Shown here: piece by piece, positions 643 to 37,496 of the stretch
Layout of the letters: the number at the start of each line of letters is the position of its first letter
Numbering within the stretch: position 1 is the first letter of the stretch
NCBI GenBank assembly: GCA_001790315.1
Contig: MGCE01000040.1
Span: 1-38,097, forward strand
DNA: 38,097 bases
Source of the DNA: Candidatus Rokubacteria bacterium RIFCSPLOWO2_02_FULL_72_37
GTDB lineage: Bacteria; Methylomirabilota; Methylomirabilia; Rokubacteriales; CSP1-6
Direction: 5' to 3'
The notes under the pieces: generated by a model
Told to the model about the DNA's origin: nothing
What the model saw: the letters and a program-made list of their open reading frames with translations, nothing else
The model's database searches: none
Position numbers and translations under genes: made by a program

Positions 643-662
643 GGGCCACCGGGTGGTGGCCC
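643..662 (+). terminator. GC-rich hairpin downstream of the first gene (possible intrinsic terminator without a U-tract)
   Basis: gggccacc-gggt-ggtggccc forms a perfect 8 bp stem with a 4 nt loop, about 80 nt after the stop at 562-564. No T-run follows. Confidence 0.25.
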
Positions 663-726
663 ACGACACGTGGCGGGGCGGCCTTCCGCGACCGGACGCG
701 GGGGGCCGCAGCCCGTCCGAACACGG

Positions 727-732
727 TATAAT
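727..732 (+). promoter_or_regulatory. -10-like hexamer TATAAT immediately upstream of glcD (short-leader or leaderless geometry)
   Basis: A perfect TATAAT lies at 727-732 in GC-rich DNA. The glcD ATG at 743 is only 10 nt downstream and has no Shine-Dalgarno sequence. No convincing -35 element. Confidence 0.3.
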
Positions 733-742
733 CCGACCCACC

Positions 743-5485: not shown

Positions 5486-5514
5486 GTAGAATGGGAGTCC
5501 CAGGGAGGGTGCTC

Positions 5515-6648
5515 ATGCCGACATCCCGTAACCGCGTCCCAGCCGTCCTGTTCCTCGCCTGTGCGCTGCTGCTCGGCTGTGCCGGGCCGGCGCGCGCGGA
5601 GAGCCCGCGGGCCATCTGGCGGGAGAGCCCGGACGCGAGCCCGGCGCCCGAGCTCCAGCGCTTCAACAACCTGCTCGCGGACCTCGCCGAGCGGCTCAAG
5701 CCCGGGCTCGTTCACGTGCGGGTCCGCCGGGCGACCGCGTCGCAGAGCGACGCCGACGGCGAGGGGCCCGCGACGCCGCGCCGGAGCACGGGCTCGGGCT
5801 TCATCGTGGACGCCAGCGGGCTCGTCGTCACCAATGCCCATGTCGTCGAGGGCGCCGATTCGATCCAGGTGAAGCTCGCCGACGGGCGGCGCTTCGCGGG
5901 TCGCGTCGTCGGGAGCGACGAGCGCGTGGATCTCGCCCTCGTCCGGATCGACGGCGCCCAGGACCTCAGCGTCCTGCCGTTGGGCGACTCGAACAGGCTC
6001 CGGGTGGGCGAGTTCGTGCTGGCGCTCGGCCACCCCTTCGGCCTCGAGCAGACCGTCTCCTTCGGCATCGTCAGCCGCAAGGGCGCTCCGCTCTCGGTGG
6101 CGGCGCCCGGGTTCGATTTCATCCAGACCGACGCGGCGGTGAATCCCGGGAACTCGGGCGGCCCGCTCGTGAACATGGCGGGGCAGGTGGTCGGCGTCAA
6201 CAGCATGGCGGCGCGGAACGGATCGATCGGGTTCGCGATCCCGTCGAATCTGGTGAAGTTCCTGCTCCCGCAGCTCGCGACCAAGGGCAAGGTCGAGTGG
6301 GGCTGGCTCGGCGTGTCGATCGCGGAGGTGACCGACGAGGACGCCGCCCGGCTCAAGCTGCCCGAGGCGCGCGGTGTCCTCGTGCGCGGGGTGATGTCCG
6401 GGGAGCCGGCCGAGCAGGGCGGGGTGCGCCCGGACGACGTGATCATCGCGATCGACGGCACGTCGCTCCAGACACCGCGGGACCTGCAGCGGCTCGTGTC
6501 GAGCACACCCGTCGGCAGGCGCGTGCGCGTGTCGCTCGTGCGCGATGGACAGCCGGCCGAAGTCGAGGTCACGATCGGGCCCTACAAGGGGAGTGGCCGC
6601 CGGACCGCGCCGCACCCCGTGCCGAGCCGGCCCGACGCGCCGAAGTAG
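5515..6648 (+). CDS. HtrA/DegP-family serine protease with PDZ domain, probable lipoprotein
   Basis: All three catalytic motifs are intact: TNAHVV (His), DLALVRI (Asp), GNSGGPLVN (Ser). A C-terminal PDZ domain is present. ATG 5515 follows a GGAGGG SD. The N-terminus VLFLACALLLGC has a lipobox-like LLGC. Confidence 0.85.
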   Translation: MPTSRNRVPAVLFLACALLLGCAGPARAESPRAIWRESPDASPAPELQRFNNLLADLAERLKPGLVHVRVRRATASQSDADGEGPATPRRSTGSGFIVDASGLVVTNAHVVEGADSIQVKLADGRRFAGRVVGSDERVDLALVRIDGAQDLSVLPLGDSNRLRVGEFVLALGHPFGLEQTVSFGIVSRKGAPLSVAAPGFDFIQTDAAVNPGNSGGPLVNMAGQVVGVNSMAARNGSIGFAIPSNLVKFLLPQLATKGKVEWGWLGVSIAEVTDEDAARLKLPEARGVLVRGVMSGEPAEQGGVRPDDVIIAIDGTSLQTPRDLQRLVSSTPVGRRVRVSLVRDGQPAEVEVTIGPYKGSGRRTAPHPVPSRPDAPK

Positions 6649-11241: not shown

Positions 11242-12273
11242 ATGCGCGCGCGGACACGGGCCCAGGGCCTCGCCATACTCGCCCTGGTCGTGCTCGGCCC
11301 CGCGCTGGCGCTCGGTGCGCCGCGGGCTCGCGTGCCCGAGCGCGCGCCCGGGCCGTTTCCGGCGCAGCCGTCCTTCGTCCAGCGCGTCGAGGCGGCGGTC
11401 GTCGGCCTCAGGGTGCGGAATGCCCCGGACGCGGTCTCGTCCAGCCGGTTGGGCGCGCGCCGCTCGGGAAGCGCCGTCGTCTTCGACGCGCGCGGCTACG
11501 CGGTCACCGTCAGCTATCTGCTCCTCGATGCGCTGGAGATCGAGGCGAGGATGCGCGACGGCCGGACCGTGCCCGCGCGGCTCGTGGGCCTCGACCTCGA
11601 GAGCGGCCTCGGGGTCGTGAGGCTGGAGGATGGCGGCCCGTGGGCCGCGGCCGCGCTCGGGCGCTCCGAGGACGTCGAGGTCGGCGCGCGCACGGCGACC
11701 GTGGGCGTGAGCGACGACGGCGAGTTGATCGCCGTCGTCGGTGCGGTGCACGCCATCCGGCGGTTTTCGGCGTACTGGGAGTATATGCTCGAGCGCGCGC
11801 TCTACCTGGCGCCGTCGAGCCCAGACTGGGCCGGCAGCGCGGTCGTGAACGACCGCGGCGAGGTGGTCGGCATCGCCTCGCTCCGCCTGGGCGAGGACCC
11901 GCACGTGAACCTCGCGATCCCCCTCGAGACGTTCGTCCCCGTCAAGGACGAGCTGATCGCCGCGGGGCGCATCGCGAGCCGGCCCACGCGGCCGTGGCTC
12001 GGACTCTACACGCTCGACCTCGACGGCGGCGTCGTGGTCAGCGAGGTGTCGCCGGTCGGTCCCGCCGCCCGCGCGGGCTTCCGCCGCGGCGACGTGATCG
12101 TCGGTGTCGACGGCGTGACCGTCGGCTCTCAAGAGGAGTTCTACCGGCGACTCTGGTCCCGGCGTGCCGGCGACCTGATCGAGGTGGCGGTGCGACGCAG
12201 CGACCGCGTCCACGTGATCACGGTGCCCTCGATCGACCGCTACCGCCTCTATCCCTCCCGGACGGGAGAGTGA
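11242..12273 (+). CDS. Secreted S1C(HtrA)-like protein with PDZ domain and a degenerate catalytic triad
   Basis: GGAGGGAG SD and a signal peptide. Aligned by eye to the intact HtrA at 5515-6648: TNAHVV becomes TVSYLL, DLALVRI becomes GLGVVRL, and GNSGGPLVN becomes DWAGSAVVN. The PDZ-like C-terminus is retained. Confidence 0.7.
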   Translation: MRARTRAQGLAILALVVLGPALALGAPRARVPERAPGPFPAQPSFVQRVEAAVVGLRVRNAPDAVSSSRLGARRSGSAVVFDARGYAVTVSYLLLDALEIEARMRDGRTVPARLVGLDLESGLGVVRLEDGGPWAAAALGRSEDVEVGARTATVGVSDDGELIAVVGAVHAIRRFSAYWEYMLERALYLAPSSPDWAGSAVVNDRGEVVGIASLRLGEDPHVNLAIPLETFVPVKDELIAAGRIASRPTRPWLGLYTLDLDGGVVVSEVSPVGPAARAGFRRGDVIVGVDGVTVGSQEEFYRRLWSRRAGDLIEVAVRRSDRVHVITVPSIDRYRLYPSRTGE

Positions 12274-14410: not shown

Positions 14411-15718
14411 ATGAAAACGATGTCGGTGCCCTCTTTCCTTCCGGCTCTCCGAATCCTGCGCGTGGGGTGGATGCTCGCGCTCGGGTTGGTCACGATTTCG
14501 ATCGACGTGAGAGTGAACGGCCCGGGGCACTCGTTCCGCGCCCACGATGCGCACGCCGACACGAGCTTGCCGCCGCTCACGGTGTGCGCCGCAGCGGAGT
14601 GGGTCATCACCAATCCCACTCCCGACTCCGTCGTCTATCAGTGTCACAGTGTCTGCCCCGCCCAGGACGGGAGCGAGTGCGTGTACGCGACGACCGACGT
14701 GCTGGGGAACTCGCTCCAGACCATCGCGTTCGTGGTGGACTCGATGGGCGGGCAGATGCGCTGGAACACGCCGCCGCAGATCGTCGCGGGTGTCGTGCAG
14801 CACTATGGCGGGACGGGCACGGCGTACACCTCGGACATATACGGGGCGGACATCCGGGCTCTGTGGGTCGAATTCGAGAACGAAGGCTACCGCCTCGTCG
14901 AGCCGAAATGGGAGACGGGGGTCGCGGGGTGGTTCTCTCGCAAGAACGGCGACCCGACGAGCCTGCCGGCCCTGCTGGTCCGACCCGCGGCCGTCATCCA
15001 GTGGGCGCGGGCGTATCTCATCCCATCCAGCGTCAAGTTTGCGACCATCGGGTGTAGCGGAGGCAGCATCGCGACCTTCGGGCCGGTGTACTGGCTGGGC
15101 CTGGCCCCGATCGTGGATTATCAATACCTCTCGAGCGCACTGCCAGGTGTGTACGACATCCCGGCCGCGTGCGCCAAGACACAATCCACCTACGGCATCT
15201 GTGAGAACGACCCGACCCGGTCCTGCCGGGACGACCGGGCCTGCGGCGATGACTACCGCTGCGCATTCCCTCAGCCCATCGGCTCACTGGGTTCGACGTC
15301 GGGGAATCCGCTGGGAGAATCGGTCAAGGCACTGATCGACTACGTCGGGGTCACGGGCGGCAAGTGCGTTGCCGGGCAATCGGACCCTTCCTTCTACCGG
15401 TCGAGCTTCAAGTACGTGCCCGGGGACCTGAGCTACGAGTACCCGATCGATCTGGACATCGGTATCGGTGGACATCCGTACTGGTGGACCGACCCGGATC
15501 CGGTGGAAAACCAGCAGTATCCGAATCTCATGACCGACACGAATCTGGGCGTCACCTACAATACCGGAAAGATCTACACTGAGATCCAGTCGAACCAGTA
15601 CAAGACGCATACCCTCTTCCCGGGGACTCACTGCGAAAGCCAGCTGAATTCTTCTCATCTCCCGGACGTGCTCAACAAGATCCGAAGCGGTCTGGGCGTC
15701 ACGCCCCGCCCCCGCTGA
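14411..15718 (+). CDS. Cys-rich exported alpha/beta-hydrolase-like protein with a tannase/feruloyl-esterase-type CS...HC signature (function tentative)
   Basis: GAGAGG SD and a hydrophobic N-terminal anchor or signal. The nucleophile elbow IGCSGGS (Cys215-Ser216) and the C-terminal GTHCES (His407-Cys408) resemble the CS-D-HC arrangement of the tannase/feruloyl esterase/MHETase family. About 13 Cys. Visibly lower GC than its neighbours. Confidence 0.4.
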   Translation: MKTMSVPSFLPALRILRVGWMLALGLVTISIDVRVNGPGHSFRAHDAHADTSLPPLTVCAAAEWVITNPTPDSVVYQCHSVCPAQDGSECVYATTDVLGNSLQTIAFVVDSMGGQMRWNTPPQIVAGVVQHYGGTGTAYTSDIYGADIRALWVEFENEGYRLVEPKWETGVAGWFSRKNGDPTSLPALLVRPAAVIQWARAYLIPSSVKFATIGCSGGSIATFGPVYWLGLAPIVDYQYLSSALPGVYDIPAACAKTQSTYGICENDPTRSCRDDRACGDDYRCAFPQPIGSLGSTSGNPLGESVKALIDYVGVTGGKCVAGQSDPSFYRSSFKYVPGDLSYEYPIDLDIGIGGHPYWWTDPDPVENQQYPNLMTDTNLGVTYNTGKIYTEIQSNQYKTHTLFPGTHCESQLNSSHLPDVLNKIRSGLGVTPRPR

Positions 15719-15930
15719 GCCCGACCCGGAACAACGCGGGTTACTCGCGCCGCTCCCAGGCCGTGCCGGCGGGCGTGTTGGGCAGACCGATCGTTCCTAC
15801 CTCCTCGAGTTCGCCGGGTCAGTGCCGGGAGAAGGATGAGACCAACTGTTGATGGTCGATGGGAGCTGAGCTAAGCTCCGTCTGACTCTTCATCTGCGAC
15901 CCATTCCGGCTGCGCGGAGGGCTCGGTATC

Positions 15931-18012
15931 GTGGTTCGCCGACCGGCGGTGACCCGCAGTCTGCAGTTGCTCCGACGCGTTCGGCGCCTCGTGCTCGTTG
16001 CATGCCTGGGGGTTGTAGCCGCCCCGACCGAAGGGCCCGCGGAAGAGGCGCGTGCCGCGCCGGGCGCGACTGAAAAGCAACGGACCGGAGACCTGACCGA
16101 GCTGCCGCTCGAAGCCCTGATGGAGCTGGAGGTCACCTCCGTATCGAAGAAACCTCAGCGGGTCGCCGACGCGGCGGCGGCGATCTACGTACTCACGCAG
16201 GAGGACATTCGCCGCTCGGGAGCGACGAGCATCGCGGAGGCGCTGCGGTTGGTCCCCGGGCTCTACGTCGCTCGGATCGGTTCGAACGCGTGGGCCGTGA
16301 GCGCCCGGGGCTTCACGGGGCGCTACAGCTCGCAGTTTCTGGTCCTCGTGGACGGCCGCGCCGTCTATACGCCGACCTTCTCGGGCGTCTTCTGGGAAGT
16401 CGTCGACACGGTTCTCGAGGACATCGAGCGCATCGAGGTGATCCGGGGACCCGGGGCCGCGCTCTGGGGCGCGAACGCCGTGAATGGCGTCGTCAACATC
16501 ATCACGAAGCGCGCGCACGACACACTGGGCGGGTTGGCGACCTTCGGCGCGGGAACCGAAGAGCGGGGCTTCGGGACTCTTCGATACGGCGCGAAGCAAG
16601 GGGATGTCGCGGTTCGCGGCTACCTCAAGTATTTCAATCGTGACGAGTTCGTCCTCGACACGCCGCAGCACGACGGCGCGGCGGACGCGTGGGAGATCTT
16701 CCGGAGCGGATTCCGCCTGGATGCCGACGTCAGCGCGCGCGACACGGTGACGCTGATCGGAAACTGGCACAAGGGGACGGTCGGCGAGACTGCCCTGGTC
16801 TCGGATCTGATGGCGCCCACTCCCGTTGGCAAGGAGTTCGTCAATGGGGTCGAGGGTCTCGACATCACGAGCCGGTGGGTCCGAGCGATCTCACAGGCCT
16901 CGAGTCTCCAACTGCAGCTCTACTACGATTGGTTGCGCCGGGAGGACTTCCGGATCCACCTGTCCATCAGAACCTACGACGCCGACCTCCAGTATCGCTT
17001 TCCGGTGGGCACCTTCAACGACGTGATCGTTGGCCTCGGCTATCGCCATTATCATCTCGACTCGACGGCGGGGCAGTTCATCGGCATGGTGCCTCCTACC
17101 GCTGATCTGCACCTGTTCAGCGCCTTCGTCCAGGACGACGTGAGCATCGTCAAGAACGTTCTGCACCTGATTCTCGGGACGAAGCTCGAGCACACGACCT
17201 ACACCGGGCTCGAGTGGGAGCCGAACGCGCGGCTCCTGTGGACTCCCACGACGGGGCACACGCTGTGGGGCGCGGTGTCTCGCGCCGTGCGGACCCCCTC
17301 GATCGGCGAGCGCCAGCGCACCTTGACGTTCGTGACTCCGCCCGGACCGGGTGTCCCGGTTCCTACGGTCTTCGTCATACGCCCTGATTCGCAGACCGAT
17401 GGGGCCGAGTCGGAAAAGCTGCTCGCGTACGAGGTCGGGTACCGGACGCAGGTCCGTCCCGGGCTGACGTTCGACGTCGCCGCTTTCTATCATCGATACA
17501 CGGACCTGATCCTCTCCGAGCTGCAATCGACGACGCTTCAGCCGGCGCCGGTTCCCCATGTGCTCGTCGCGAGCACAACCAAGAACGCCTTCGACAGCGA
17601 GGTGTACGGCTTCGAGCTTCTGGCGGAATTCGAGCCCTTCACGTGGTGGAAGCTCCGCGGCGCGTACGCGTTCCTGGCACGCCAGGACGACAGGCGCGTG
17701 GTCACGATCCAGACCACGGACGCGAACCGGAGCCCGCAGTCCGTGGCCCACGTGCGGTCGCTGCTCGACCTCGGCCGCGGCTTCGAGCTCGACGTCGTCG
17801 CGCGGTACGTCGGTAACCTGCCCGAGGGGAATGCGCGCGAGTACTTCGAGCTCGACGCACGACTCGGCTGGCGCTCGCGCGCGGTCGAGCTCGCGCTCGT
17901 CGGCCGCAACCTCGTGCACGCTCAGCACCTCGAGTACAACAACGTGGCGCTGGGACCGGTGCCGGTCGGGGTCCAGCGAGAAATGCTCTTCAAGGCGACG
18001 CTCAGGTTTTGA
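15931..18012 (+). CDS. TonB-dependent outer-membrane receptor
   Basis: GGAGGG SD plus GTG start, and a signal peptide. The plug region reads LPLEALMELEVTSVSKKPQRVADAAAAIYVLTQEDIRRSGATSIAEALRLVPGL...IEVIRGPGAALWGANAVNGVVNIITK. A beta-barrel follows, ending in the terminal ...TLRF. Confidence 0.9.
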   Translation: MVRRPAVTRSLQLLRRVRRLVLVACLGVVAAPTEGPAEEARAAPGATEKQRTGDLTELPLEALMELEVTSVSKKPQRVADAAAAIYVLTQEDIRRSGATSIAEALRLVPGLYVARIGSNAWAVSARGFTGRYSSQFLVLVDGRAVYTPTFSGVFWEVVDTVLEDIERIEVIRGPGAALWGANAVNGVVNIITKRAHDTLGGLATFGAGTEERGFGTLRYGAKQGDVAVRGYLKYFNRDEFVLDTPQHDGAADAWEIFRSGFRLDADVSARDTVTLIGNWHKGTVGETALVSDLMAPTPVGKEFVNGVEGLDITSRWVRAISQASSLQLQLYYDWLRREDFRIHLSIRTYDADLQYRFPVGTFNDVIVGLGYRHYHLDSTAGQFIGMVPPTADLHLFSAFVQDDVSIVKNVLHLILGTKLEHTTYTGLEWEPNARLLWTPTTGHTLWGAVSRAVRTPSIGERQRTLTFVTPPGPGVPVPTVFVIRPDSQTDGAESEKLLAYEVGYRTQVRPGLTFDVAAFYHRYTDLILSELQSTTLQPAPVPHVLVASTTKNAFDSEVYGFELLAEFEPFTWWKLRGAYAFLARQDDRRVVTIQTTDANRSPQSVAHVRSLLDLGRGFELDVVARYVGNLPEGNAREYFELDARLGWRSRAVELALVGRNLVHAQHLEYNNVALGPVPVGVQREMLFKATLRF

Positions 18013-18545
18013 GAGGGAGGCGCGGCATCAGAAGCGTAGCGCTTCTTGCCTCGGTCGCGATCTTCGGCGCCGGCGCGCTGGCGCAGGGCGCCCCCCTGGA
18101 GGATTCGAGCGTCAAAGCGGCGATCCTCTTCAACGTCGCGCGGTTCACCGAGTGGCCCGCGGCGGCGTTCGGCAGCGAGGCCGCGCCCGTCGTCCTGTGT
18201 GTCCTCGGGACCGATCCGGCCGGTGCGCTGGGGCGCCTCGAGGGAAAGCTCCTGAAGGGGCGGTCGCTCAGCGTCCGCCAGGGCGCGGAGGTGCGTCTGG
18301 GTCAATGCCACATCGCGTACATCAGTCCCGAGCGGCCGAACCTCGGTGAAGTCCTCAAGGCCGTCGAGAAGCTCACCGTCCTGACCGTCAGCGACATCGA
18401 TCGGTTCGCGCGCAAGGGCGGCATGATCGGCCTCGTCAACGAGGGCGGCAAGATCCGCTTCGAGGTCAACCTCGGCGCGGCCGAGCGCGCCGGACTCAAG
18501 CTCAGCTCGAGGCTGCTCCAGCTGGCGAGCATCGTGCGGAACTGA
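18009..18545 (+). CDS. YfiR/DUF4154-like periplasmic protein
   Basis: Signal peptide. The stretches VKAAILFNVARFTEWP, LTVSD and GGMIGLV..GGKIRFEVNL..A...GLKLSSRLLQLA fit my recollection of the YfiR family. A TTG start overlaps the receptor stop (TTGA). The start codon is uncertain. Confidence 0.65.
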   Translation: MRGRRGIRSVALLASVAIFGAGALAQGAPLEDSSVKAAILFNVARFTEWPAAAFGSEAAPVVLCVLGTDPAGALGRLEGKLLKGRSLSVRQGAEVRLGQCHIAYISPERPNLGEVLKAVEKLTVLTVSDIDRFARKGGMIGLVNEGGKIRFEVNLGAAERAGLKLSSRLLQLASIVRN

Positions 18546-18546
18546 G

Positions 18547-20868
18547 ATGCGCCGATTCCGCGACTTCTCGATCCGGGCGAAGCTCACGACCATCGTGGTC
18601 GGGACGACGGCCCTGGTGCTCCTGTTGGCCTCCGCGGGCTTCGTCGTCAGTGGCGTCCAGAACGTGAAGCAGGCGATGATCCGCGAGCTGGCGGCGCTGG
18701 CCGATGCCATCGGCACGAACACGGTCGCGGCGCTCGTGTTCCACGACGCCGCCGCGGCCCGCGAGACGCTGGCGGCGCTCCGCTCCCAGCCCAACGTCAT
18801 CAACGCCCAGGTCCTCTCGCCGGCCGGCGATGTCTTCGCCAGCTTCACGGCTGTGGAGACGTCGGATCCCCCGGCGGCAGTGATTGGACCGGAGGTCAGG
18901 CACCTGGTGGAGACGCGCGCTGACGGCACGTACGCGTGGGGCCACAGCCTCACCGTCGTCCGGCGCGTCAGGCTCGACAACGAGAGCGTCGGGTTCATTC
19001 GTATCGAGGCGAACCTGGATCGGGTGACGGCGGCGGTACGCAGCGTCCTGATCACCGTGAGCGCGGTCGCGATCCTCCTCCTGGGGGTGGCCCTGGCGGT
19101 CGGGTATCGCCTGCAGCGGCTGGTCTCCCAGCCCATCGTGAAGCTGACGTCGACGATCTCGGCGGTCGGTCGGGACAAGGACTACACGCTCCGGGCCGAG
19201 AAGACCTCCTCGGACGAGCTCGGTGTCTTGATGGACGGGTTCAACGAGATGCTGGCGCAGATCCAGTCGCGGGATGAGCAGCTGGCACGCCAGCGCAACG
19301 AGCTGGAAGACCTGGTGACCGTGCGGACCGCCGAGCTGCAGCGGGCGGTCGTGGCGGCCGAGGAGGCGAACCGGACGAAGACGACGTTCCTGGCCAACAT
19401 GTCGCACGAGCTCCGCACGCCGCTGAACGCGATCATCGGCTACAGCGAGATGCTTCAAGAGGAGGTGACCGAGGCGGGCGACGAACGCTTCGCCCGCGAC
19501 CTCCAGCGGATCAACGCCGCGGGCCGGCATTTGCTCGAGCTGATCAACGCCGTCCTGGACCTGGCGAAGATCGAGGCGGGCAAGATGGAGCTCCACCTCG
19601 ACAGCTTCGCCGTCGCGACGATGGTGGACGAGATCGCGGCCGTCATCGAGCCCCTGGCGCACCAGCACCGGAACGCGTTCCACGCCCGTCTCGAGGGCGA
19701 CGTCGGAGTCATGAGGGCCGACCTCACCAAGGTGCGCCAGGTCCTGCTGAACGTGCTGAGCAACGCCTGCAAGTTCACGGAACAGGGCGAGGTAGCCCTG
19801 GTCGTTGGCCGCGAGACGCTCGAGGAGCGCGAGTGGCTGACCTTCCAGATCATCGACAACGGCATCGGCATGACCGAGGCGCAGCTCGGTCGGCTGTTTC
19901 AGGAGTTCGCGCAGGCGGAGGATTCCGTCGCGGGCAAGTACGAGGGGACGGGACTCGGGCTGGCGCTCAGCCGGAAGATCTCCTGGATGATGGGCGGCGA
20001 CATCACGGTCGTGAGCGAGCGGGGGCGCGGAAGCGCATTCACGGTCCGGTTGCCGGCGAGTGTCCCCGACCAGAGCGGCGAGGAGAAGCGCGACGACGGA
20101 TCGGCGCGCCTGCCGGGATCGGCGGGGACGGTCCTCGTCATCGACGACGAGCCGGCCGCGCGGGACCTGATGCGCCGATTCCTGGTCGCGGCCGGCTTCG
20201 CAGTCGCGACGGCGGGCGACGGCGATGAAGGCCTCCGGATGGCCGCGGAGATGCGGCCGGACGTCATCACCCTGGACGTGATGATGCCGGGGCGTGACGG
20301 CTGGGCCGTCCTCGCGGCGCTGAAGGCCAGCCCGGAACTGGCGGACATCCCGGTCGTCATGGTGACGGTCGTCGGCGAGCGCAATCTGGGATTCGCGCTC
20401 GGCGCGGCCGACTACCTGACGAAACCGCTCGACCGGCCCCGGTTGACGGCGGTGCTGCGAAAGCATTGCCGGGGGCGCTTCCGTGTGCTGATCGTGGACG
20501 ACGACGCCCAACTCAGGCGCCAGATACGGCAGGCGCTCGAGCAGGACGGGTGGTTGGTCGTGGAGGCCGCGAACGGCGTGAGCGCCCTCGAACGGCTGCG
20601 CGAGGAGTCGCCGGCCCTCATCCTGGTGGATCTCGCGATGCCGGCACCGGACGGGTTCGAGTTCCTGGCCTCCATTCACGACCACGACGAGTGGAAACGC
20701 ATCCCGGTCGTCGTCCTGACGCCGGAGCGCCTGTCCGACGAGGAACGCCTGCGCCTGGGGGGGCAGGTCGCGAGGATCCTCGAGCAACGGACGTTCAGCG
20801 CGGAGAGGCTGCTGGGGGAGATCCGGGCGCTGATCGGCTCTCCCGAGAAGGGGCGTCGCCATGGCTAG
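18547..20868 (+). CDS. Hybrid sensor histidine kinase: TM-CHASE8-like periplasmic domain-TM-HAMP-HisKA-HATPase-REC-REC
   Basis: The N-terminal region AIGTNTVAALVFHDAAAARETLAALRSQPNVINAQVLSPAGDVFASF resembles CHASE8. H-box NMSHELRTPLNAIIGYSEML. ATPase G-boxes DNGIGM and GTGLGLALS. Two receiver domains (VITLDVMMPGRDG and LILVDLAMPAPDG). Confidence 0.85.
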   Translation: MRRFRDFSIRAKLTTIVVGTTALVLLLASAGFVVSGVQNVKQAMIRELAALADAIGTNTVAALVFHDAAAARETLAALRSQPNVINAQVLSPAGDVFASFTAVETSDPPAAVIGPEVRHLVETRADGTYAWGHSLTVVRRVRLDNESVGFIRIEANLDRVTAAVRSVLITVSAVAILLLGVALAVGYRLQRLVSQPIVKLTSTISAVGRDKDYTLRAEKTSSDELGVLMDGFNEMLAQIQSRDEQLARQRNELEDLVTVRTAELQRAVVAAEEANRTKTTFLANMSHELRTPLNAIIGYSEMLQEEVTEAGDERFARDLQRINAAGRHLLELINAVLDLAKIEAGKMELHLDSFAVATMVDEIAAVIEPLAHQHRNAFHARLEGDVGVMRADLTKVRQVLLNVLSNACKFTEQGEVALVVGRETLEEREWLTFQIIDNGIGMTEAQLGRLFQEFAQAEDSVAGKYEGTGLGLALSRKISWMMGGDITVVSERGRGSAFTVRLPASVPDQSGEEKRDDGSARLPGSAGTVLVIDDEPAARDLMRRFLVAAGFAVATAGDGDEGLRMAAEMRPDVITLDVMMPGRDGWAVLAALKASPELADIPVVMVTVVGERNLGFALGAADYLTKPLDRPRLTAVLRKHCRGRFRVLIVDDDAQLRRQIRQALEQDGWLVVEAANGVSALERLREESPALILVDLAMPAPDGFEFLASIHDHDEWKRIPVVVLTPERLSDEERLRLGGQVARILEQRTFSAERLLGEIRALIGSPEKGRRHG

Positions 20869-21238
20869 GATCCTCCTCGTGGAAGACAACGAGATGAACC
20901 GCGACATGCTCTCGCGCCGGCTGATGAAGCGGAGCCACGAGGTCATCATCGCCGTCGACGGGCGCCAGGCTCTGGAGATGGCGGAAGCGCGCGTCCCGGA
21001 CGTGATCCTGATGGACATGAGCCTGCCGGTCCTCGACGGCTGGGAGGCCACCCGGCGTCTCAAGGCCCTTCCTGCGACCCGGGCGATCCCGATCATCGCA
21101 CTCACGGCGCACGCCCTCTCCGGAGAAAGGGAGAAGGCCCTGGCGGCCGGCTGCGACGAGTTCGACACCAAGCCGATCGATTTCGCCGCGCTGCTGTCGA
21201 AGATCGACGCACTCCTCGCCCGGAGGCCAAGCGCGTGA
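20861..21238 (+). CDS. Single-domain CheY-like response regulator
   Basis: RILLVEDNEMNRDML...DVILMDMSLPVLDGWE...IIALTAHA...DEFDTKPI is a canonical receiver. It overlaps the kinase stop by 8 nt. Confidence 0.85.
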   Translation: MARILLVEDNEMNRDMLSRRLMKRSHEVIIAVDGRQALEMAEARVPDVILMDMSLPVLDGWEATRRLKALPATRAIPIIALTAHALSGEREKALAAGCDEFDTKPIDFAALLSKIDALLARRPSA

Positions 21239-21269
21239 CCAGGTCCGGGCACGGCGGGAGGCGGCGCGC

Positions 21270-22973
21270 ATGACGGGCCGCGCCCGCGTGCTGATCGTCG
21301 ACGACGATGCGACGAACCGCGATCTGCTCGTCCGCATGCTCGAGCGGCACGGACTCGCCACGGCCGTCGCCGAGGACGGCGACCAGGCGCTGCGGATGGT
21401 CGCGGGCCAGCGGTTCGACCTGGTCCTGCTCGACATCATCATGCCGGGGATGAGCGGCCACGAAGTGCTCGGGCGCCTCAAGGGCGACGACGCGCTTCGC
21501 CATCTGCCCGTGATCGTCATCTCGTCGCTCGACGACCTGGAGAGCACGACCGCATGCATCGAGCTGGGCGCCGAGGATTATCTCCTGCGGCCGTTCAACT
21601 CGACGATCCTCCGCGCCCGCATCGACGCGTCCCTCGAGCGGAAGCGTCTGTACGACGAAGAAGCGGCGGTCCGGCGCCGGCTCGAGGCGTTCAACGAAGA
21701 GCTCGAGGTCCGGGTGCAGGAGGCGACGGCCGAGCTTCACCGTCGCCTCCGCGAGCTGACGGGCATGATCGACGTGGCGCGATCGATCATCTCCGTCCTC
21801 GAGCTCGACAGCCTGCTCGCCGGCATCATGCGGCTGAGCAAGGAGGTCATGAACGCCGAGGCGAGCTCGCTGCTGCTGGCCGATCCGGAGACGCGCAGCC
21901 TCCGGTTCCACGTCGCCACCGGCGCGGCGGGGAAGGCGATCGAAGGGCACACGGTGAGATTCGGGCAAGGGATCGCCGGGTACGTCGCCGAGACGGGGGA
22001 GTCGGTCCTGATCGCCGACGCCTATGAGGACCCGCGATTCGACCCGGGCTTCGACCGGCTCTCCGGATTCCGGACCCGCTCGATCCTGACCGTGCCGCTC
22101 AGGACCACGGAAGGCATCGTCGGGGTCGTGCAGGTCATGAACAAGATCGGTCGCGAGTCCTTCGACGTGCACGACCTCGAGCTCTTCGAGTCGTTCGCGA
22201 GCATGGCCGGCATCTCGCTGCACAATGCGAGGCTCTTCGAGCGCCTCCGCCGGATGGCCGACGACCTGCGTGTCGCGCTCGAGAAGGAGCGGTGGCTCTC
22301 GATCGAGAAGGAGAAGATGCGCGCCTACATCCCCAGGAACGTCGTGGACGAGATCTCGCGCAATCGGGAGCAGAAGCTCGCGCTGGGGGGCAAGATCGTG
22401 GACGCCACGGTCCTCTTCGCGGACATCCAGGGGTTCACGCGGTTGTCCGAACGCCTCCCGCCCCAGCAGATCGTCGGATTCCTGAACGAGTACATGACGG
22501 CCATGACGTGCCTCATCGAGGCCGAGGGCGGCATCATCGACAAGTTCATGGGCGACGGCATCATGGCGATCTTCCTGCCCCGCGACGCGGGCGACAATCA
22601 CGCGCTGCGCGCGGTGCGTGCCGGACTTCGCATGCAGGATGGGCTCAAGACGCTGAAGGAAGGGTGGCACGAGCGCCGGCCGGAGATCGCAGAGCTCACG
22701 GCGCGCATCGGCGTCAACACGGGCGAGATGGTCGCGGGCAACGTCGGCTCGGAGACCCGCATGGACTACACGGTCATCGGCGACAACGTCAATCTCGCCT
22801 CGCGGATCGAGTCGAACGGCCGGGGAGGCGAGGTGCACGTCAGCGGCGCCGTGCACCGGCTGGTCGCCGGGCACGTCGCGGCCCACCCCCTGGGCAGCAT
22901 CAGCGTGAAGAACCGTATCCAGCCCGTGCAGGTCTATTCGGTGAGCGGGCTCTCCGAGGCCGGGCGCCAATGA
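21270..22973 (+). CDS. REC-GAF-class III adenylate/guanylate cyclase
   Basis: GGGAGG SD. Receiver domain (LVLLDIIMPGMSG) and a GAF region. Cyclase motifs ATVLFADIQGFT, IDKFMGDGIMAIF, GVNTGEMVAGNVGS and VIGDNVNLASRIES. Confidence 0.85.
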   Translation: MTGRARVLIVDDDATNRDLLVRMLERHGLATAVAEDGDQALRMVAGQRFDLVLLDIIMPGMSGHEVLGRLKGDDALRHLPVIVISSLDDLESTTACIELGAEDYLLRPFNSTILRARIDASLERKRLYDEEAAVRRRLEAFNEELEVRVQEATAELHRRLRELTGMIDVARSIISVLELDSLLAGIMRLSKEVMNAEASSLLLADPETRSLRFHVATGAAGKAIEGHTVRFGQGIAGYVAETGESVLIADAYEDPRFDPGFDRLSGFRTRSILTVPLRTTEGIVGVVQVMNKIGRESFDVHDLELFESFASMAGISLHNARLFERLRRMADDLRVALEKERWLSIEKEKMRAYIPRNVVDEISRNREQKLALGGKIVDATVLFADIQGFTRLSERLPPQQIVGFLNEYMTAMTCLIEAEGGIIDKFMGDGIMAIFLPRDAGDNHALRAVRAGLRMQDGLKTLKEGWHERRPEIAELTARIGVNTGEMVAGNVGSETRMDYTVIGDNVNLASRIESNGRGGEVHVSGAVHRLVAGHVAAHPLGSISVKNRIQPVQVYSVSGLSEAGRQ

Positions 22974-24520
22974 CGATCGATCCGGTCGCGCGTCTCCGTC
23001 ACGACCTCCGCACGCCGCTGAACCACGTGATCGGGTACTGCGAGATGCTGCTGGAGGAGATCGACGAGTTCCCGGAGTTCGCCGAGGAGCTGCGGCTCAT
23101 CCATCGCCAGGGGCATCGCCTGCTCGCGGTCGTCGGCGAGCTCCTCGCCGGGGCCCAGGGAGCGGGGACTCGTCTCCCGCCGGTGCCACCCGAGGCCGAG
23201 GCCGCGCTGCGTGAGCTGGTCGCCGCGCACGACCGGCTGCGCGATCGAGCCCCGGCGGTCGGCGCGGACCGCCTCCTGCCCGATCTCGCGAGGATCGGGG
23301 CGGCCGTCCGACAGCTTGCCGTGCTCCTCGGCCTCGCGTCCGCGGACGCGGCCTCCGGCGGCGCGGCCGCGCCGGAGGCGGCGGGCGCCGACTCGACGTC
23401 GGACGCTCGCGGGACGATCGTCGTCGTCGACGACAACGAGGGCAACCGCGACGTGCTGGCGCGGGGTCTCGCGCGTGAGGGCTACCGCGTCCACGTGGCG
23501 TCGGGCGGTCTCGAGGCGCTGCAGATCCTGCGCCGCGCGACGATCGATCTGGTGCTGCTCGACGTCATGATGCCGGAGGTCGACGGGTACGAGGTGCTCA
23601 AGCGCATCAAGGCCGACGGGCGCCTCCGCGACATTCCCGTCTTGATGATCTCCTCGCTCGATCAGATCGAGAGCGTGGCGCGCTGCATCGAGCTCGGGGC
23701 GGACGACTACCTCACGAAGCCCTTCAGCCGGGTGCTCCTTCGGGCACGGATCGGTGCCTGCCTCGAGCGGAAGCGGCTCCACGACCAGGAGCTCAAGCAC
23801 CTCCAGGAGCTGGCCGAGTGGAATCGCCGCCTCGAGCAGCGCGTCCAGGAGCAGGTGGCGCAGGTCGAGCGGCTCGGCCGGCTCAAGCGCTTCTTCTCGC
23901 CCCAGCTGGCCGAGCTCATCGTGGCCGGGGGCGCGGACGACCCGCTGAAGGCGCACCGGCGCGAGATCACGGTGGTGTTCCTCGACCTCCGCGGCTTCAC
24001 CGCGTTCGCGGAGACGGCGGAGCCGGAGGAGGTCATGAACGTGCTCCAGGAGTACCACGCCGAGATGGGCCGGCTCATCGTCGAGCGCGAAGGCACGCTC
24101 GAGCGCTTCACCGGTGACGGGATGATGGTCTTCTTCAACGATCCGGTGTCGGTCGAGAACCCCGCCGAGCGCGCCCTGCGCATGGCGGTGGCCATGCGTG
24201 AACGCGTCCAGGCGCTGTCCCGCGCGTGGCGCAAGCAGGGTTGGGATCTCGCCCTGGGCGTGGGCATCGCTCAGGGCTACGCCACGATCGGCGCGATCGG
24301 CTTCGAAGGGCGCCGCGACTACGGCGCGATCGGCACCGTCACGAACATGGCCGCCCGGCTCTGCGGCGAGGCCAAGGGCGGTCAGATCTTCGTGTCGTCC
24401 CGCGTCGTCGCGGCGGTCGAGGGAATCGTCGTGGCGGAGGAGGTGGGGCCGCTCAGCCTCAAGGGCCTGCTCCGGCCCATCCCCACGTTCAACGTTCTTG
24501 GATTGAGACCGGGCGCCTGA
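22970..24520 (+). CDS. HisKA(DHp)-only domain-REC-class III nucleotide cyclase
   Basis: ATG 22970 overlaps the upstream stop (ATGA). The H-box RLRHDLRTPLNHVIGYCEML has no downstream HATPase motifs. A low-complexity linker follows, then a receiver (LVLLDVMMPEVDG), a coiled linker, and cyclase motifs ITVVFLDLRGFT, LERFTGDGMMVFF and IGTVTNMAARLCGEA. The 5' part of track ORF 22292..24520 is an out-of-frame overlap with the upstream gene. Confidence 0.8.
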   Translation: MTIDPVARLRHDLRTPLNHVIGYCEMLLEEIDEFPEFAEELRLIHRQGHRLLAVVGELLAGAQGAGTRLPPVPPEAEAALRELVAAHDRLRDRAPAVGADRLLPDLARIGAAVRQLAVLLGLASADAASGGAAAPEAAGADSTSDARGTIVVVDDNEGNRDVLARGLAREGYRVHVASGGLEALQILRRATIDLVLLDVMMPEVDGYEVLKRIKADGRLRDIPVLMISSLDQIESVARCIELGADDYLTKPFSRVLLRARIGACLERKRLHDQELKHLQELAEWNRRLEQRVQEQVAQVERLGRLKRFFSPQLAELIVAGGADDPLKAHRREITVVFLDLRGFTAFAETAEPEEVMNVLQEYHAEMGRLIVEREGTLERFTGDGMMVFFNDPVSVENPAERALRMAVAMRERVQALSRAWRKQGWDLALGVGIAQGYATIGAIGFEGRRDYGAIGTVTNMAARLCGEAKGGQIFVSSRVVAAVEGIVVAEEVGPLSLKGLLRPIPTFNVLGLRPGA

Positions 24521-31066: not shown

Positions 31067-31103
31067 CTGGCCGCAGATGTTCGCGCGGCGGCCGGAGGGA
31101 GCC

Positions 31104-31901
31104 ATGGACAGGGGAACCGTGCTGATCGTCGACGACGATCCCGAGGTGCGGGCGACCCTCGCGGAATACCTCGCCGAGGACGGGTTCGAGGTCGCCGAGG
31201 CGGGCAACGGACTCGAAGCGCTCGCCCACGTCAAGCGCGCGCGGCCCAGGGCCATCGTGCTCGACCTCATGATGCCGCGCCTCGGCGGGATCGACGCGCT
31301 CCAGAGGATCCGGGGATTCGATCCGACGATCGGGGTGGTCGTCGTCACGGGCGCCGAGGACATCGAGCTGCACCGCAAGGCGCTGGCGCTGGGCGCCCTC
31401 GCCGTCTTCACGAAGCCGGTCGCGCCGTCGGACGTCGCCGTCGCGCTCGGGGGGCGGGGGCCCGCGCCCGGGAGGCCTGCACCGGCGCCGCGCGCGGCGG
31501 ACACGCCTGCCACGCCGCCGCTCGCGAAGGTCCTCGTCGTGGACGACGAGCCGCAGGTCCGCGCGATGCTCGAGGAGCTCGTGGGGGCGATGGGCTACGA
31601 AACGCGGAGCGCGCCCGACGGCCTGACCGGGGTCCGCGCGGTGCTCGACTGGGACCCGGACATCGTGCTCCTCGACATCGGCATGCCAGGTCTCAGCGGC
31701 GTCGGCGCGTTGCCCGTGATCGCGAGGCTCGCCCCCACGACGAAGGTCATCATGGTCAGCGGCATCACGAACCTCGAAGTGTCCAGGCGATCGCTCGCCT
31801 ACGGCGCCTTCGACTATGTCGCGAAGCCGGTGGACGTGGACTACCTGCAGCGGTCCCTCGAGACCGCGGTGATGATGAAGCGGCTGGAGGAGGCCCGCTG
31901 A
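31104..31901 (+). CDS. Response regulator with two receiver domains and no output domain
   Basis: REC1 is VLIVDDDPEVR...IVLDLMMPRLGG...FTKP. A Pro/Ala-rich linker follows. REC2 is VLVVDDEPQVR...IVLLDIGMPGLSG...YVAKP. ATG 31104 follows GGAGGGA. An alternative ATG lies at 31077. Confidence 0.8.
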   Translation: MDRGTVLIVDDDPEVRATLAEYLAEDGFEVAEAGNGLEALAHVKRARPRAIVLDLMMPRLGGIDALQRIRGFDPTIGVVVVTGAEDIELHRKALALGALAVFTKPVAPSDVAVALGGRGPAPGRPAPAPRAADTPATPPLAKVLVVDDEPQVRAMLEELVGAMGYETRSAPDGLTGVRAVLDWDPDIVLLDIGMPGLSGVGALPVIARLAPTTKVIMVSGITNLEVSRRSLAYGAFDYVAKPVDVDYLQRSLETAVMMKRLEEAR

Positions 31902-35597: not shown

Positions 35598-37496
35598 ATG
35601 ATCACGCTGATGCGCCGCCAGCGCAGGGCCCTCCAGGTGGGGCTGCTGCTGGTCGTCGCGGCCTTCGTCGCCTCGCTGTTCGTGTTCGGCACGCGCGGTT
35701 TCGACGGCGGCGGCCCGCCGGACACGGTGGCGACGGTCAACGGCGAGCGCATCTCCTTCGAGCGCTATCAGCGCCGGTACCAGGCCTACTACGACGCCTA
35801 TGCGCAGATCTACCGGGAGCGTTTTTCGTCCGAGCTCGCGGAGCGCCTCGGGCTCGCGCAGCAGGTGGTCAACGACCTCGTCCAGGAGGCGCTGGTCGTG
35901 CAGCGCGCCCGGGCGGAAGGCTTCGAGCTCTCGGACGAGGAGCTCAACGCGCGCATCCAGGCGATTCCCGCGTTCCAGGACGGGGGCCGCTTCGTGCTGA
36001 AGCGCTACGAGGAGTTCCTGCGCCGCCGCGGGATCAGTGCGGCCGCGTTCGAGGACGAGGTCCGCCGTGAGCTCACGCGGGCCCGCGTCGAGGCTACCGT
36101 GCGGGGGAGCGTCACGGTGTCCGAGGCCGAGATCGAGCAGGCGTTCGCGATGCGCCGTGAGGAGGTCCGGGCCGCCTGGGCACTCGTCGAGCTCGGCCCG
36201 CTCGTGGCCGCCGCGACGGCGGCGGACTCCGAGCTCCCGGACTACCTCGCGAAGCACGGCGACGAGTTCCGGCAGCCCGAGCGGCGGCGTGTCCAGTACG
36301 TGCTGCTCGCGGAGAAGGACTTCACGAAACCCATCGGCGACGCGGAGGTGGAGAAGTACTACGCCGCGCACCAGAAGGAATTCGAGACACCGCACCAGGT
36401 GCGCGCCGCCCACGTGCTCGCGCGGGTGCCCGACACGGGCGGCAGTGCGGCCGAGGACAAGGCCCGCGCGAAGATCGTCGACGTCATCCGCCGGGCGAAG
36501 GCCGGCGAGGACTTCGCGAAGCTCGCCCGGGAGCTGTCGGAAGATCCGGGGTCGGCACCGAACGGTGGCGACCTCGGCCTCGTGAGCCGGGGCGAGATGG
36601 TGCCGCAGTTCGAGCAGGCCGTCTTCGCGCTCAAGAAGGGGGAGGTCTCGCCCGAGCCCGTGCGCACGCCGTTCGGCTTCCACGCGATCAAGGTCGTCGC
36701 GGTGCAGGAGGGCGGCCGCAAGCCGCTCCGGGAGGTGGCCGCGCAGATCCGCGGCCGGCTCGTGGCGGAAGCCGCCGAGGCGGCGGCGCGGGCGCGCGCG
36801 GACGCGATCGGGTCGGAGCTCCGGGCGGCGAAGGACTTCGGGGCCGCGGCAAAGGCGCTCGGTCTCACGCCGCTCGAGGCCACGCTGGTGAAGAGCGATC
36901 GGCTCGCCGGGCTCGGGGCGCCCGACGTCCTCGAGGAGGCCGCGTTCGCGCTCACCGTCGGCGGGGTGTCGGCGTCGGTCAAGACGCCGACCGGCATCGT
37001 CCTGCTGAAGTCGGTCCAGGCGATTCCCGCGGGCGTGCCCCCGCTCGAGGAGATCAAGGCCAAGGTCGCCGACGCCGTGAAGCGCCAGAAAGCCGAGGCC
37101 GTCGCCGCCGAGCGTGCGCGGCAGCTCGCGGCCGATGCCGCCGCGGGAGACTTCGCTGCCGCGGCCAGGAAGGCTGGGGCGGTCACGGGGCAGACGCCGC
37201 GCTTCTCGCGCGCGAAGCCGGCGGAGAAGCTGCCCGGCGACGCCCAGGTGGCGGGGCTCGAGACGCCCGCAGGCCGCGTCACGGCGCCCGTGCGGACGCA
37301 GCAGGGTTACTACGTCCTGAACGTCCTCGAGCGCGTCGCACCGGACACGGCAGGGCTCGCGGCCGAACGCGAGAAGATCCTGCGGGAGCTACTGAACCGG
37401 AAGCAGAGTCTCGCGTGGGAGTCGTGGCTCTCGGTCGCCCGGCAGGGCGCGACGATCGACGTGTCCGGCCGACTCTCCGCGCCTCGCCGCGGGTAG
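35598..37496 (+). CDS. ppiD: Periplasmic chaperone / peptidyl-prolyl isomerase PpiD-like (SurA_N plus parvulin domain)
   Basis: N-terminal TM anchor, VATVNGERIS, and a parvulin core VRAAHVL...SEDPGSAPNGGDLG...MVPQFEQAVFALKKGEVS.PV.TPFGFHAIKV. Confidence 0.8.
   Translation: MITLMRRQRRALQVGLLLVVAAFVASLFVFGTRGFDGGGPPDTVATVNGERISFERYQRRYQAYYDAYAQIYRERFSSELAERLGLAQQVVNDLVQEALVVQRARAEGFELSDEELNARIQAIPAFQDGGRFVLKRYEEFLRRRGISAAAFEDEVRRELTRARVEATVRGSVTVSEAEIEQAFAMRREEVRAAWALVELGPLVAAATAADSELPDYLAKHGDEFRQPERRRVQYVLLAEKDFTKPIGDAEVEKYYAAHQKEFETPHQVRAAHVLARVPDTGGSAAEDKARAKIVDVIRRAKAGEDFAKLARELSEDPGSAPNGGDLGLVSRGEMVPQFEQAVFALKKGEVSPEPVRTPFGFHAIKVVAVQEGGRKPLREVAAQIRGRLVAEAAEAAARARADAIGSELRAAKDFGAAAKALGLTPLEATLVKSDRLAGLGAPDVLEEAAFALTVGGVSASVKTPTGIVLLKSVQAIPAGVPPLEEIKAKVADAVKRQKAEAVAAERARQLAADAAAGDFAAAARKAGAVTGQTPRFSRAKPAEKLPGDAQVAGLETPAGRVTAPVRTQQGYYVLNVLERVAPDTAGLAAEREKILRELLNRKQSLAWESWLSVARQGATIDVSGRLSAPRRG

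Follow-up and report, generated by a model that had tools for sequence, protein, structure and literature searches.

A TonB-dependent receptor, a YfiR-like protein and a CHASE8 hybrid kinase joined to a candidate phosphorelay to class III nucleotide cyclases in Candidatus Rokubacteria

Contig MGCE01000040.1 of the uncultured Candidatus Rokubacteria bacterium RIFCSPLOWO2_02_FULL_72_37 (assembly GCA_001790315.1), analyzed here over positions 1 to 38,097 of the forward strand and referred to as the window, contains a cassette of six genes coding for a TonB-dependent receptor (TBDR), a secreted YfiR-like protein of the DUF4154 family, a membrane hybrid histidine kinase with a CHASE8 domain, a stand-alone receiver (REC125), and two class III nucleotide cyclases that each carry a receiver (REC) domain (cyclase 1 and cyclase 2). 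We consider it rather probable that the six genes form a single signaling operon built from two recurrent modules, an envelope front end and a phosphorelay leading to the cyclases. All of the domains are known, and the front-end triad of TBDR, YfiR-like protein and CHASE8 kinase has been catalogued; what is new is the placing of this front end on a cyclic-mononucleotide phosphorelay with a fused His-bearing helical bundle.

The hybrid kinase carries a part of each module. Its sensor half (residues 1-250) is 47-50% identical to the sensors at two other loci, L001 and L003 (loci compared with the window are given L numbers), and 31-37% identical to other triad sensors, while its transmitter and its REC-REC region are 63% and 58% identical, respectively, to the C-terminal parts of 2300-residue multi-GAF kinases (L085, L086), as compared with only 27-41% to the same regions of other triad kinases. 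Because the sensor half groups with the triad sensors, and the transmitter and receivers with the cyclase-relay module, the kinase is, judged by these similarities, a sensor/relay chimera, half triad sensor and half cyclase-relay module.

The linkage of such sensors to cyclases is also found elsewhere. At L114, where cyclase 2 is 92% identical to that in the window, REC125, the REC-GAF cyclase and the HisKA-REC cyclase are kept in the same order, and L001, a more distant relative, has a cassette of the same order that lacks the REC-GAF cyclase. Direct fusions are present at two further loci. At L003 (3564-7409) a TBDR and a DUF4154 protein are accompanied by one CHASE8-HAMP-GAF-PAS-cyclase fusion protein, and a divergently oriented regulator with cNMP_binding and HTH_Crp domains, two genes downstream, is a candidate receptor for the product. 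At L117 (2397-8369; GCA_973786405.1) a DUF4154 gene is followed by the gene for P0347, a 1759-residue protein with the layout CHASE8-HAMP-HisKA-HATPase-REC-REC-Hpt x4-REC-cyclase, in which the substrate positions of the cyclase are Asn/Thr; no TBDR gene is adjacent at this locus.

The relay half recurs as a module of its own. A kinase gene ending in HK-REC-REC, a gene for a receiver of about 116-125 residues, and a gene for a HisKA-REC-cyclase of about 512-584 residues are found together at seven places (L001, L085, L086, L087, L113, L115, and one for which there is no DNA), and the junctions, where readable, are 4- or 8-nt overlaps. The sensor is of the multi-GAF type at six of the seven, and the triad sensor is present in L001 and in the window. 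At L116 two further multi-GAF kinases lie between the receiver and the cyclase gene. The HisKA-REC-cyclase genes are usually located behind a giant (1600-2300 residues) multi-GAF hybrid kinase, with the 125-residue receiver usually in between (L085 2671-11554, L086 2686-11566, L087, L115 and L116). For the catalytic domain of cyclase 2, identity to the counterparts in L001, L085 and L086 is 72-77%, with 77% for the L085/L086 module. In these three loci a 125-residue receiver comes before each of the HisKA-REC-cyclase genes examined, and REC125, which has an intact E-D/D/T/K active-site set, is 69-72% identical to it, with 72% for the L085/L086 module, as compared with 41% identity to a triad receiver.

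The six open reading frames (Table 1) lie in DNA of about 70% G+C, and the coding frame is singled out by codon-position G+C, with third-position values (GC3) of 0.85-0.92 for the first five; gene 6 has no score of its own, since the mechanically defined reading frame begins at 22292. Genes 1 and 2 are joined by a TTGA overlap (18009-18012), genes 2 and 3 are separated by a 1-nt gap (18546), genes 3 and 4 share the 8-nt overlap ATGGCTAG (20861-20868), the 31-nt spacer between genes 4 and 5 includes GGGAGG ahead of the ATG at 21270, and genes 5 and 6 are joined by an ATGA overlap (22970-22973). A GGAGGG sequence is positioned about 9 nt 5' of the GTG start of the TBDR gene. An earlier note, made from the sequence alone, had described six co-directional genes with these coordinates and junctions, and the reading frames and boundary sequences match it throughout. 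Domains were assigned with Pfam profiles; every domain that the note had named was recovered above its gathering score, including the two on whose support the note had made its reading depend, DUF4154 (139.4 bits) and CHASE8 (60.8 bits). Neither an ECF (extracytoplasmic function) sigma factor nor an anti-sigma factor was found among the window genes scanned, as the note had also stated.

Table 1. Genes and domains of the cassette in the window; aa, residues of the encoded protein; TM, transmembrane segment.
Feature	Positions	Strand	Evidence
TonB-dependent receptor, 693 aa	15931..18012	+	Pfam Plug 85 bits; TonB_dep_Rec_b-barrel 88 bits
YfiR-like periplasmic protein, 178 aa, TTG start, signal peptide	18009..18545	+	PF13689 139.4 bits
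Membrane hybrid histidine kinase, 773 aa	18547..20868	+	CHASE8 60.8 bits, HAMP, HisKA, HATPase_c, two Response_reg
Kinase layout: TM1 ~aa 11-38, CHASE8 41-153, TM2 ~159-190, HAMP 189-240			Pfam and hydropathy
Kinase layout, continued: HisKA 278-345 (His287), HATPase_c 392-504, REC1 529-637, REC2 ~646-760			Pfam
Stand-alone receiver (REC125), 125 aa	20861..21238	+	Response_reg 83 bits
REC-GAF-class III cyclase (cyclase 1), 567 aa	21270..22973	+	Pfam Response_reg-GAF-Guanylate_cyc
His-bearing four-helix domain-REC-class III cyclase (cyclase 2), 516 aa	22970..24520	+	HisKA 42.9, Response_reg 103, Guanylate_cyc 70.8 bits
His-bearing four-helix domain, N-terminal 125 aa of cyclase 2	22970..23344	+	Pfam HisKA 42.9 bits, residues 6-59

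The last gene holds a domain overlooked in that first reading, an N-terminal HisKA domain that is not accompanied by HATPase_c. The public gene call for this gene (P0125, 367 aa) begins inside it and loses the His-bearing domain, and the start at ATG 22970 is backed by at least 120 full-length homologues, among the matches listed, with the N-terminus MxIDPxAxLRH[ED]LRTPLN. The H-box histidine is His11 (codon 23000-23002), and the H-box RH[ED]LRTPLNxxIGY is invariant in 23 members of the cyclase 2 family. AlphaFold2 predicts a single-chain bundle for the domain (predicted local distance difference test, pLDDT, 92.3; predicted template modeling score, pTM, 0.83) with helices at 5-29, 35-62, 74-93 and 100-119, and in the L001 orthologue the second hairpin aligns with the dimerization and histidine phosphotransfer (DHp) domain of kinases (E 2e-9), with Arg replacing the His. 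The domain has the look of two DHp units repeated in tandem and closed up into one bundle.

A hybrid kinase normally requires a second histidine. No Pfam match to Hpt (PF01627) is present in any of the six cassette proteins, whereas L117 has four canonical Hpt domains at the place that the His-bearing four-helix domain holds in the cassette. Given the invariant H-box, the lack of Hpt in the cassette and the equivalent position of Hpt in L117, the four-helix domain is a candidate phosphotransfer domain that probably supplies the missing histidine. H287 and H11 are the His sites of the cassette, and the acceptor Asp is retained in all five receivers; the conserved receiver Lys is replaced by Arg in REC2 of the kinase. 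Spo0B and ChpT are familiar non-kinase phosphotransferases of the DHp type. PhyT is a further precedent (PMC5898713).

A different explanation, which we would put at something like one chance in four, is that the HisKA-like domain is a dimerizer of the cyclase or a phosphatase module, that the kinase phosphorylates the cyclase receivers directly, and that its own receivers and REC125 act as phosphate sinks. Class III cyclases require dimers, and cyclase 1 has no such domain, yet its receiver is paralogous to that of cyclase 2 (52% identical). The Thr at position H+4 of the H-box would suit HisKA phosphatase chemistry. Several further points count against a phosphotransfer role, namely that the HisKA domain of the Dictyostelium adenylate cyclase ACR enforces cyclase dimerization (PMC3009899), that the bundle is a prediction for the monomer, and that a Foldseek search with it returned generic four-helix bundles (best E 0.16) and no specific Hpt or DHp match, so that the model supports the fold class and no specific family. 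However, the HisKA domain of ACR has lost its His, whereas in the cyclase 2 family the H-box is invariant throughout, its His included, and the prediction is of a closed single-chain bundle rather than a dimerizing hairpin. The four true Hpt domains of L117, together with the need of a hybrid kinase for a second His in a cassette without Hpt, also favor phosphotransfer by the four-helix domain.

Both catalytic domains have their nearest solved structures in CyaB (3r5g), Synechocystis Cya2 (2w01) and Spirulina CyaC (1wc0). The best solved relative of cyclase 1 is Pseudomonas aeruginosa CyaB (3r5g, E 2e-37), and in the alignment to this structure cyclase 1 retains both metal-binding Asp residues, the Asn and the Arg, and has the residues of a class IIIb adenylate-type enzyme of the CyaB/CyaC kind. 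Because its substrate pair is Lys/Thr as in CyaB, a pair that is also present in the cyclases of L003 and L114, the likely product is cyclic AMP (cAMP). The gene for cyclase 1 is present in L114 and absent from both L001 and L113, and since L113 (75% identical) and L001 lack it, it is a recent insertion.

Cyclase 2 belongs to a large and tightly conserved family, with at least 120 full-length homologues among the matches listed, mostly 63-67% identical, and its three-domain composition is found in 118 of 120; the homologues with names come from Rokubacteria/Methylomirabilota, Binatia and Terriglobales, and the family is very abundant in metagenomes. Residues H11, D198, K250, D339, D383, R379, G452, N459 and R463 are invariant in the 23 members compared. 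Cyclase 2 has kept the two Asp residues that bind metal as well as the Asn and Arg of the transition state. Of the two substrate-specifying residues, Arg379 corresponds to Lys in CyaB and to Glu in Cya2, and Gly452 to Thr in CyaB and to Gly in Cya2, such that Arg/Gly matches neither the canonical adenylate cyclase pair (Lys/Asp or Thr) nor the guanylate cyclase pair (Glu/Cys or Gly), and allows no assignment of the product. The suggestion in the earlier note that the output is cAMP or cyclic GMP therefore stands for cyclase 1, as cAMP, and cannot be carried over to cyclase 2.

The front end is far more widespread than the cassette. One genome per species in GTDB was scanned with an alignment of YfiR-like proteins, giving at least 593 confirmed relatives, of which the best 80 loci were kept and the DUF4154 reading frame was recovered in 79; domains were mapped at these loci by phmmer using seeds from the window and from Pfam-verified loci. 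A TBDR gene adjoins the DUF4154 gene in 64 of the 75 loci with room for one, and a CHASE8 protein is encoded next after DUF4154 in 74 of 79; histidine kinases make up 69 of these 74, and hybrid ones 45. Among 25 metagenome loci the corresponding counts are 19/19 for an adjacent TBDR and 21/22 for a CHASE8 protein after DUF4154. The window has the same conserved neighborhood, with the order TBDR, YfiR-like protein and CHASE8 kinase, and the best full-length matches of its first three genes are the NCBIfam triad models. The triad as described in the earlier note is thus real, and its recurrence in Proteobacteria was correctly given (Alpha-, Beta- and Gammaproteobacteria), with the proviso that the range is far broader and takes in Acidobacteriota, Desulfobacterota, Nitrospirota, Verrucomicrobiota, Methylomirabilota and others. 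Full-text literature searches returned no paper joining DUF4154, CHASE8 and a TBDR, in keeping with the description of its ligand and mechanism as undefined.

The usual output of the triad is a set of cyclic di-GMP (c-di-GMP) enzymes, and cyclase output is rare. Genes for GGDEF, EAL or HD-GYP proteins are located within 6.5 kb in 32 of the 79 GTDB loci, much as the earlier note had it for GGDEF/EAL; nine of the ten large receiver proteins beside triads are REC-(PAS)-GGDEF-EAL proteins, and the small ones (n=14) include eight REC-HD-GYP and five REC-GGDEF proteins. With the sensor (residues 1-250) as query, an exhaustive HMMER search recovered 638 representatives with E values no higher than 1e-30; the best 148, which were mapped, include 111 HisKA-type kinases (63 hybrid) along with HisKA_2/HWE-type kinases, one chemoreceptor, four GGDEF/EAL fusions, and two proteins with cyclase domains. 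When metagenomes were scanned with the YfiR-like protein, a single close relative came up, and its contig is 1.3 kb long. There are variations on the arrangement: two or three TBDR genes in tandem, and/or two DUF4154 genes, precede a single CHASE8 kinase at L025, L031, L062, L043, L097 and L107-L109, and the order DUF4154, CHASE8 kinase, TBDR is seen at L051 (928-5721) and L064 (9965-14632), both from Fluviicoccus, and at L065 (9908-14506), from an Acidobacteriota metagenome-assembled genome. We take the place of the TBDR behind the sensor in these three loci to be that of yfiB in yfiRNB.

The TBDR of the cassette has a plug, a beta-barrel and a terminal aromatic residue. An N-terminal hydrophobic leader and the motif DLTELPLEALMELEVTSVSKK (residues 54-74, 16090-16152) are followed by the plug (residues 78-187), the barrel and a C-terminal Phe (...TLRF). 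The protein shares 50-53% identity with its counterparts in L001 and L003 and matches NCBIfam NF053590 ('TOL_0244 family') over its full length, with 565.6 bits against a cutoff of 645. Close variants of DLTELPLEALMELEVTSVSKK precede the plug in many triad TBDRs, where the common segment reads DLTxLS[LI]E[EQ]LMx[IV]EVTSVSKK; this segment may serve as a TonB box region or for contacts in the periplasm. The sole functional datum found for the triad is that TOL_0244 is up sevenfold on n-C28 alkane in a proteomic study of Thalassolituus oleivorans, whose authors likened it to the Alcanivorax alkane-sensing outer-membrane protein OmpS (PMC6304351). Hydrophobic ligands are thus possible for TBDRs of the TOL_0244 type, a lead too weak to name a ligand.

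The YfiR-like protein has a hydrophobic leader (residues 6-28) behind a basic N-terminus and covers positions 2-142 of the 143 in PF13689 (cutoff 24.9). It scores 123.1 against NF053591 ('TOL_0243 YfiR-like', cutoff 125), does not reach the YfiR equivalog model NF053586 (38.6, cutoff 85), and aligns end to end with P. aeruginosa YfiR (4zhu, E 1.3e-5). C64 and C100 align with two cysteines of YfiR, C100 being nearly invariant, and the family-invariant residues F151, N154, S166, S167 and L170 fall in the C-terminal region, where in our reading of the alignment Glu152 lies opposite YfiR Glu163. It is the C-terminal region of YfiR that binds YfiN and YfiB, and YfiB sequesters YfiR through a surface overlapping that used for YfiN; vitamin B6 and L-Trp are weak ligands of the same hydrophobic pocket (PMC4887326). 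The periplasmic domain of YfiN is currently classed as CHASE8 (PMC8085984), and the binding of YfiR to YfiN is repressive. In the cassette kinase two transmembrane segments flank the CHASE8 domain and are followed by HAMP, the H-box His, HATPase_c and receivers with acceptor Asp; residues 8-240 score 172.9 against NF053592 ('HK, YfiR-like protein-associated', cutoff 194).

The TBDR might be simply a co-transcribed importer, or lie outside the signaling path, with the YfiR-like protein and the CHASE8 kinase sensing periplasmic redox or envelope state by themselves, and we give this perhaps one chance in five. The TBDR is not obligatory, since none is adjacent at 11 of the 75 GTDB loci nor at L117, and it has no Pfam match to a FecA-type N-terminal signaling (STN) extension, the plug beginning at residue 78 after a short leader. 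YfiR can act as a redox sensor independently of YfiB (PMC4887326), and the YfiR-like protein has the two YfiR-aligned cysteines. However, the adjacency is very high in a range of more than eight phyla, the stop codon of one gene often overlapping the start codon of the next, and these TBDRs form a family of their own, with an NCBIfam model defined beside those for the YfiR-like protein and the kinase. In addition, the flanking genes are unrelated and vary from locus to locus, so the linkage does not come from a shared transport or catabolic pathway.

That the cyclase genes are adjacent to the triad by chance is very unlikely. It would fit with the absence of any class III cyclase from the 104 surveyed triad loci (79 GTDB and 25 metagenome), and with the finding that most of the HisKA-REC-cyclase genes examined follow multi-GAF kinases. 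But the cassette kinase is itself half triad sensor and half cyclase-relay module, genes overlap by 4-8 nt, the cassette recurs in L001 and L114, and direct fusions are present in L003 and L117. Since the transmitter of the kinase varies together with the cyclase module, and four architectures show a sensor of this type linked to a cyclase, the link is genuine rather than fortuitous, which was the point on which the earlier note had asked for a survey of neighborhoods. Least probable of all, and rejected here, is that the cyclases are Pycsar-type anti-phage enzymes: PADLOC PycC models match both cyclase domains (best 95 and 72 bits), but the matches span no more than the class III fold common to such enzymes, scores as good or better are obtained with Pfam Guanylate_cyc, CyaB, Cya2 and CyaC, no other cassette protein matches a Pycsar model, and both enzymes are receiver-gated within a two-component operon.

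In the scheme that we infer, including its physical contacts, the direction of regulation, the sequence of phosphotransfer steps, the nature of the ligand and what the cyclases make, the YfiR-like protein would bind the periplasmic CHASE8 domain and set the activity of the kinase by analogy with YfiR and YfiN, because DUF4154 together with CHASE8/HAMP is the YfiR-YfiN pairing. The TBDR would set the amount of free YfiR-like protein, either through import of a small ligand to which that protein responds, or through direct binding of the protein, as YfiB does; this is the most economical account of the front end. The kinase would autophosphorylate at His287 and hand the phosphoryl group on to the receivers that it carries and/or to REC125, from where it would move to His11 of the four-helix domain and then to the receiver of cyclase 2, and possibly also to the paralogous receiver of cyclase 1. 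The receivers would switch the class III cyclase domains, so that cyclase 1 makes cAMP and cyclase 2 makes a cyclic nucleotide of unassigned identity.

Some observations weigh against this scheme, in addition to those given above for the TBDR, the four-helix domain and the triad survey. The first three cassette proteins all score slightly under the trusted cutoffs of the three NCBIfam triad models, and the conserved receiver Lys is replaced by Arg in the receiver of cyclase 1. No genes for a cyclic-mononucleotide receptor, TonB or ExbBD were found among the window genes scanned, and a promoter and terminator scan of this 70% G+C DNA gave no useful operon boundaries and did not delimit the transcript.

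It is conceivable, and we offer it tentatively, that the cassette is a third kind of TBDR signaling, next to cell-surface signaling through ECF sigma factors and to plain import, in which a YfiR-like protein reads receptor occupancy or import and gates a CHASE8 kinase, and a fused single-chain DHp phosphotransferase turns on a cAMP cyclase and a member of a very abundant soil-bacterial cyclase family with an invariant Arg/Gly site that perhaps makes a non-canonical cyclic nucleotide.

Known systems resemble the cassette in parts. YfiBNR/HmsCDE of P. aeruginosa, E. coli and Yersinia likewise combines a secreted YfiR-family protein, an inner-membrane CHASE8-HAMP sensor and an outer-membrane partner, and in YfiBNR an outer-membrane protein brings about the release of a periplasmic repressor (PMC4887326, PMC8085984). 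However, the outer-membrane partner in the cassette is a 22-strand-type TBDR whereas YfiB belongs to the OmpA/Pal-like lipoproteins, and the sensor output is a hybrid histidine kinase rather than the GGDEF domain of YfiN; no GGDEF or OmpA-like gene is present in the cassette. The cassette is YfiBNR-like at the envelope and is not a member of YfiBNR, because it lacks GGDEF and YfiB and has a sub-threshold YfiR equivalog score. The NCBIfam TOL_0244/TOL_0243/HK-near-YfiR-like triad has the same three proteins in the same order, but in the genomes surveyed goes with c-di-GMP enzymes and not with cyclases. FecA-FecR-FecI also starts a trans-envelope path with a TBDR, whereas the cassette TBDR has no signaling domain and the sigma and anti-sigma partners are missing.

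On the relay side, the closest known case of a class III cyclase under His-Asp control is CyaC of Spirulina and Anabaena (REC-GAF-GAF-HK-REC-class IIIb cyclase), in which the His-Asp step takes place within the cyclase protein (PMC3009899), as proposed here for cyclase 2. CyaC has its own ATPase domain; cyclase 2 has no ATP-binding domain and therefore could not autophosphorylate and would have to be fed by the upstream hybrid kinase. Non-kinase His proteins derived from DHp relay phosphoryl groups between receivers in Spo0F-Spo0B-Spo0A and in CckA-ChpT-CtrA. Pak-PhyT-PhyR is a further such relay (PMC5898713), whereas the His domain of the cassette is fused to its target receiver and enzyme and is predicted to be a single-chain tandem-DHp bundle. 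In the Sinorhizobium meliloti NsrA-CyaK/CyaD1/CyaD2-Clr system an outer-membrane receptor, not described as TonB-dependent, is needed to activate inner-membrane class III adenylate cyclases (PMC7529298); these are described as CHASE2-domain adenylate/guanylate cyclases (PMC13001267), and no YfiR-like protein, kinase or phosphorelay has been described with them. The route proposed here had been called unusual and essentially uncharacterized, which holds for the triad, on which we found no paper, and less so for the general path from outer membrane to cyclase, for which Sinorhizobium provides a precedent.

The cassette is flanked by unrelated housekeeping genes, with a Vut_1 transporter and an orphan secreted protein on the 5' side and an acyl-CoA synthetase-like gene on the 3' side. 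A reading frame at 14411-15718 (+), 212 nt upstream of the TBDR gene, encodes a Cys-rich 435-residue protein with an N-terminal hydrophobic leader and a lower GC3 (0.83); it has no Pfam, PADLOC or NCBIfam-type match and no homologue in any fetched locus. We considered a seventh conserved gene upstream of the cassette and rejected it, as neither this protein nor a 188-residue protein of L001 has a counterpart in other loci. An Rfam search for riboswitches, which could have given a clue to the ligand, gave no match anywhere in the window, and within 15600-16050 none even when E values up to 1 were admitted. A 274-residue protein with two tandem receivers and no output domain (31077-31901, +) is encoded 6.5 kb downstream of the cassette, between the gene for an oxaloacetate decarboxylase beta subunit and major facilitator superfamily transporter genes. 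The window also contains two genes for HtrA-like trypsin-PDZ periplasmic proteases (5491-6648 and 11242-12273, +) and one for a SurA-like chaperone (35598-37496).

The triad is present in hundreds of species from many phyla, and we found no experimental paper on it. Its sensor is a portable front end that can be joined to c-di-GMP enzymes, to plain kinases, to a chemoreceptor or to a relay for cyclic mononucleotides, and the His-bearing four-helix domain is a compact element that may stand in for Hpt. The cyclase 2 family, with its unassigned Arg/Gly substrate site, is now open to study. If the TBDR truly feeds the YfiR-like protein, the triad would be a general means by which Gram-negative bacteria couple outer-membrane uptake to second messengers without sigma factors.

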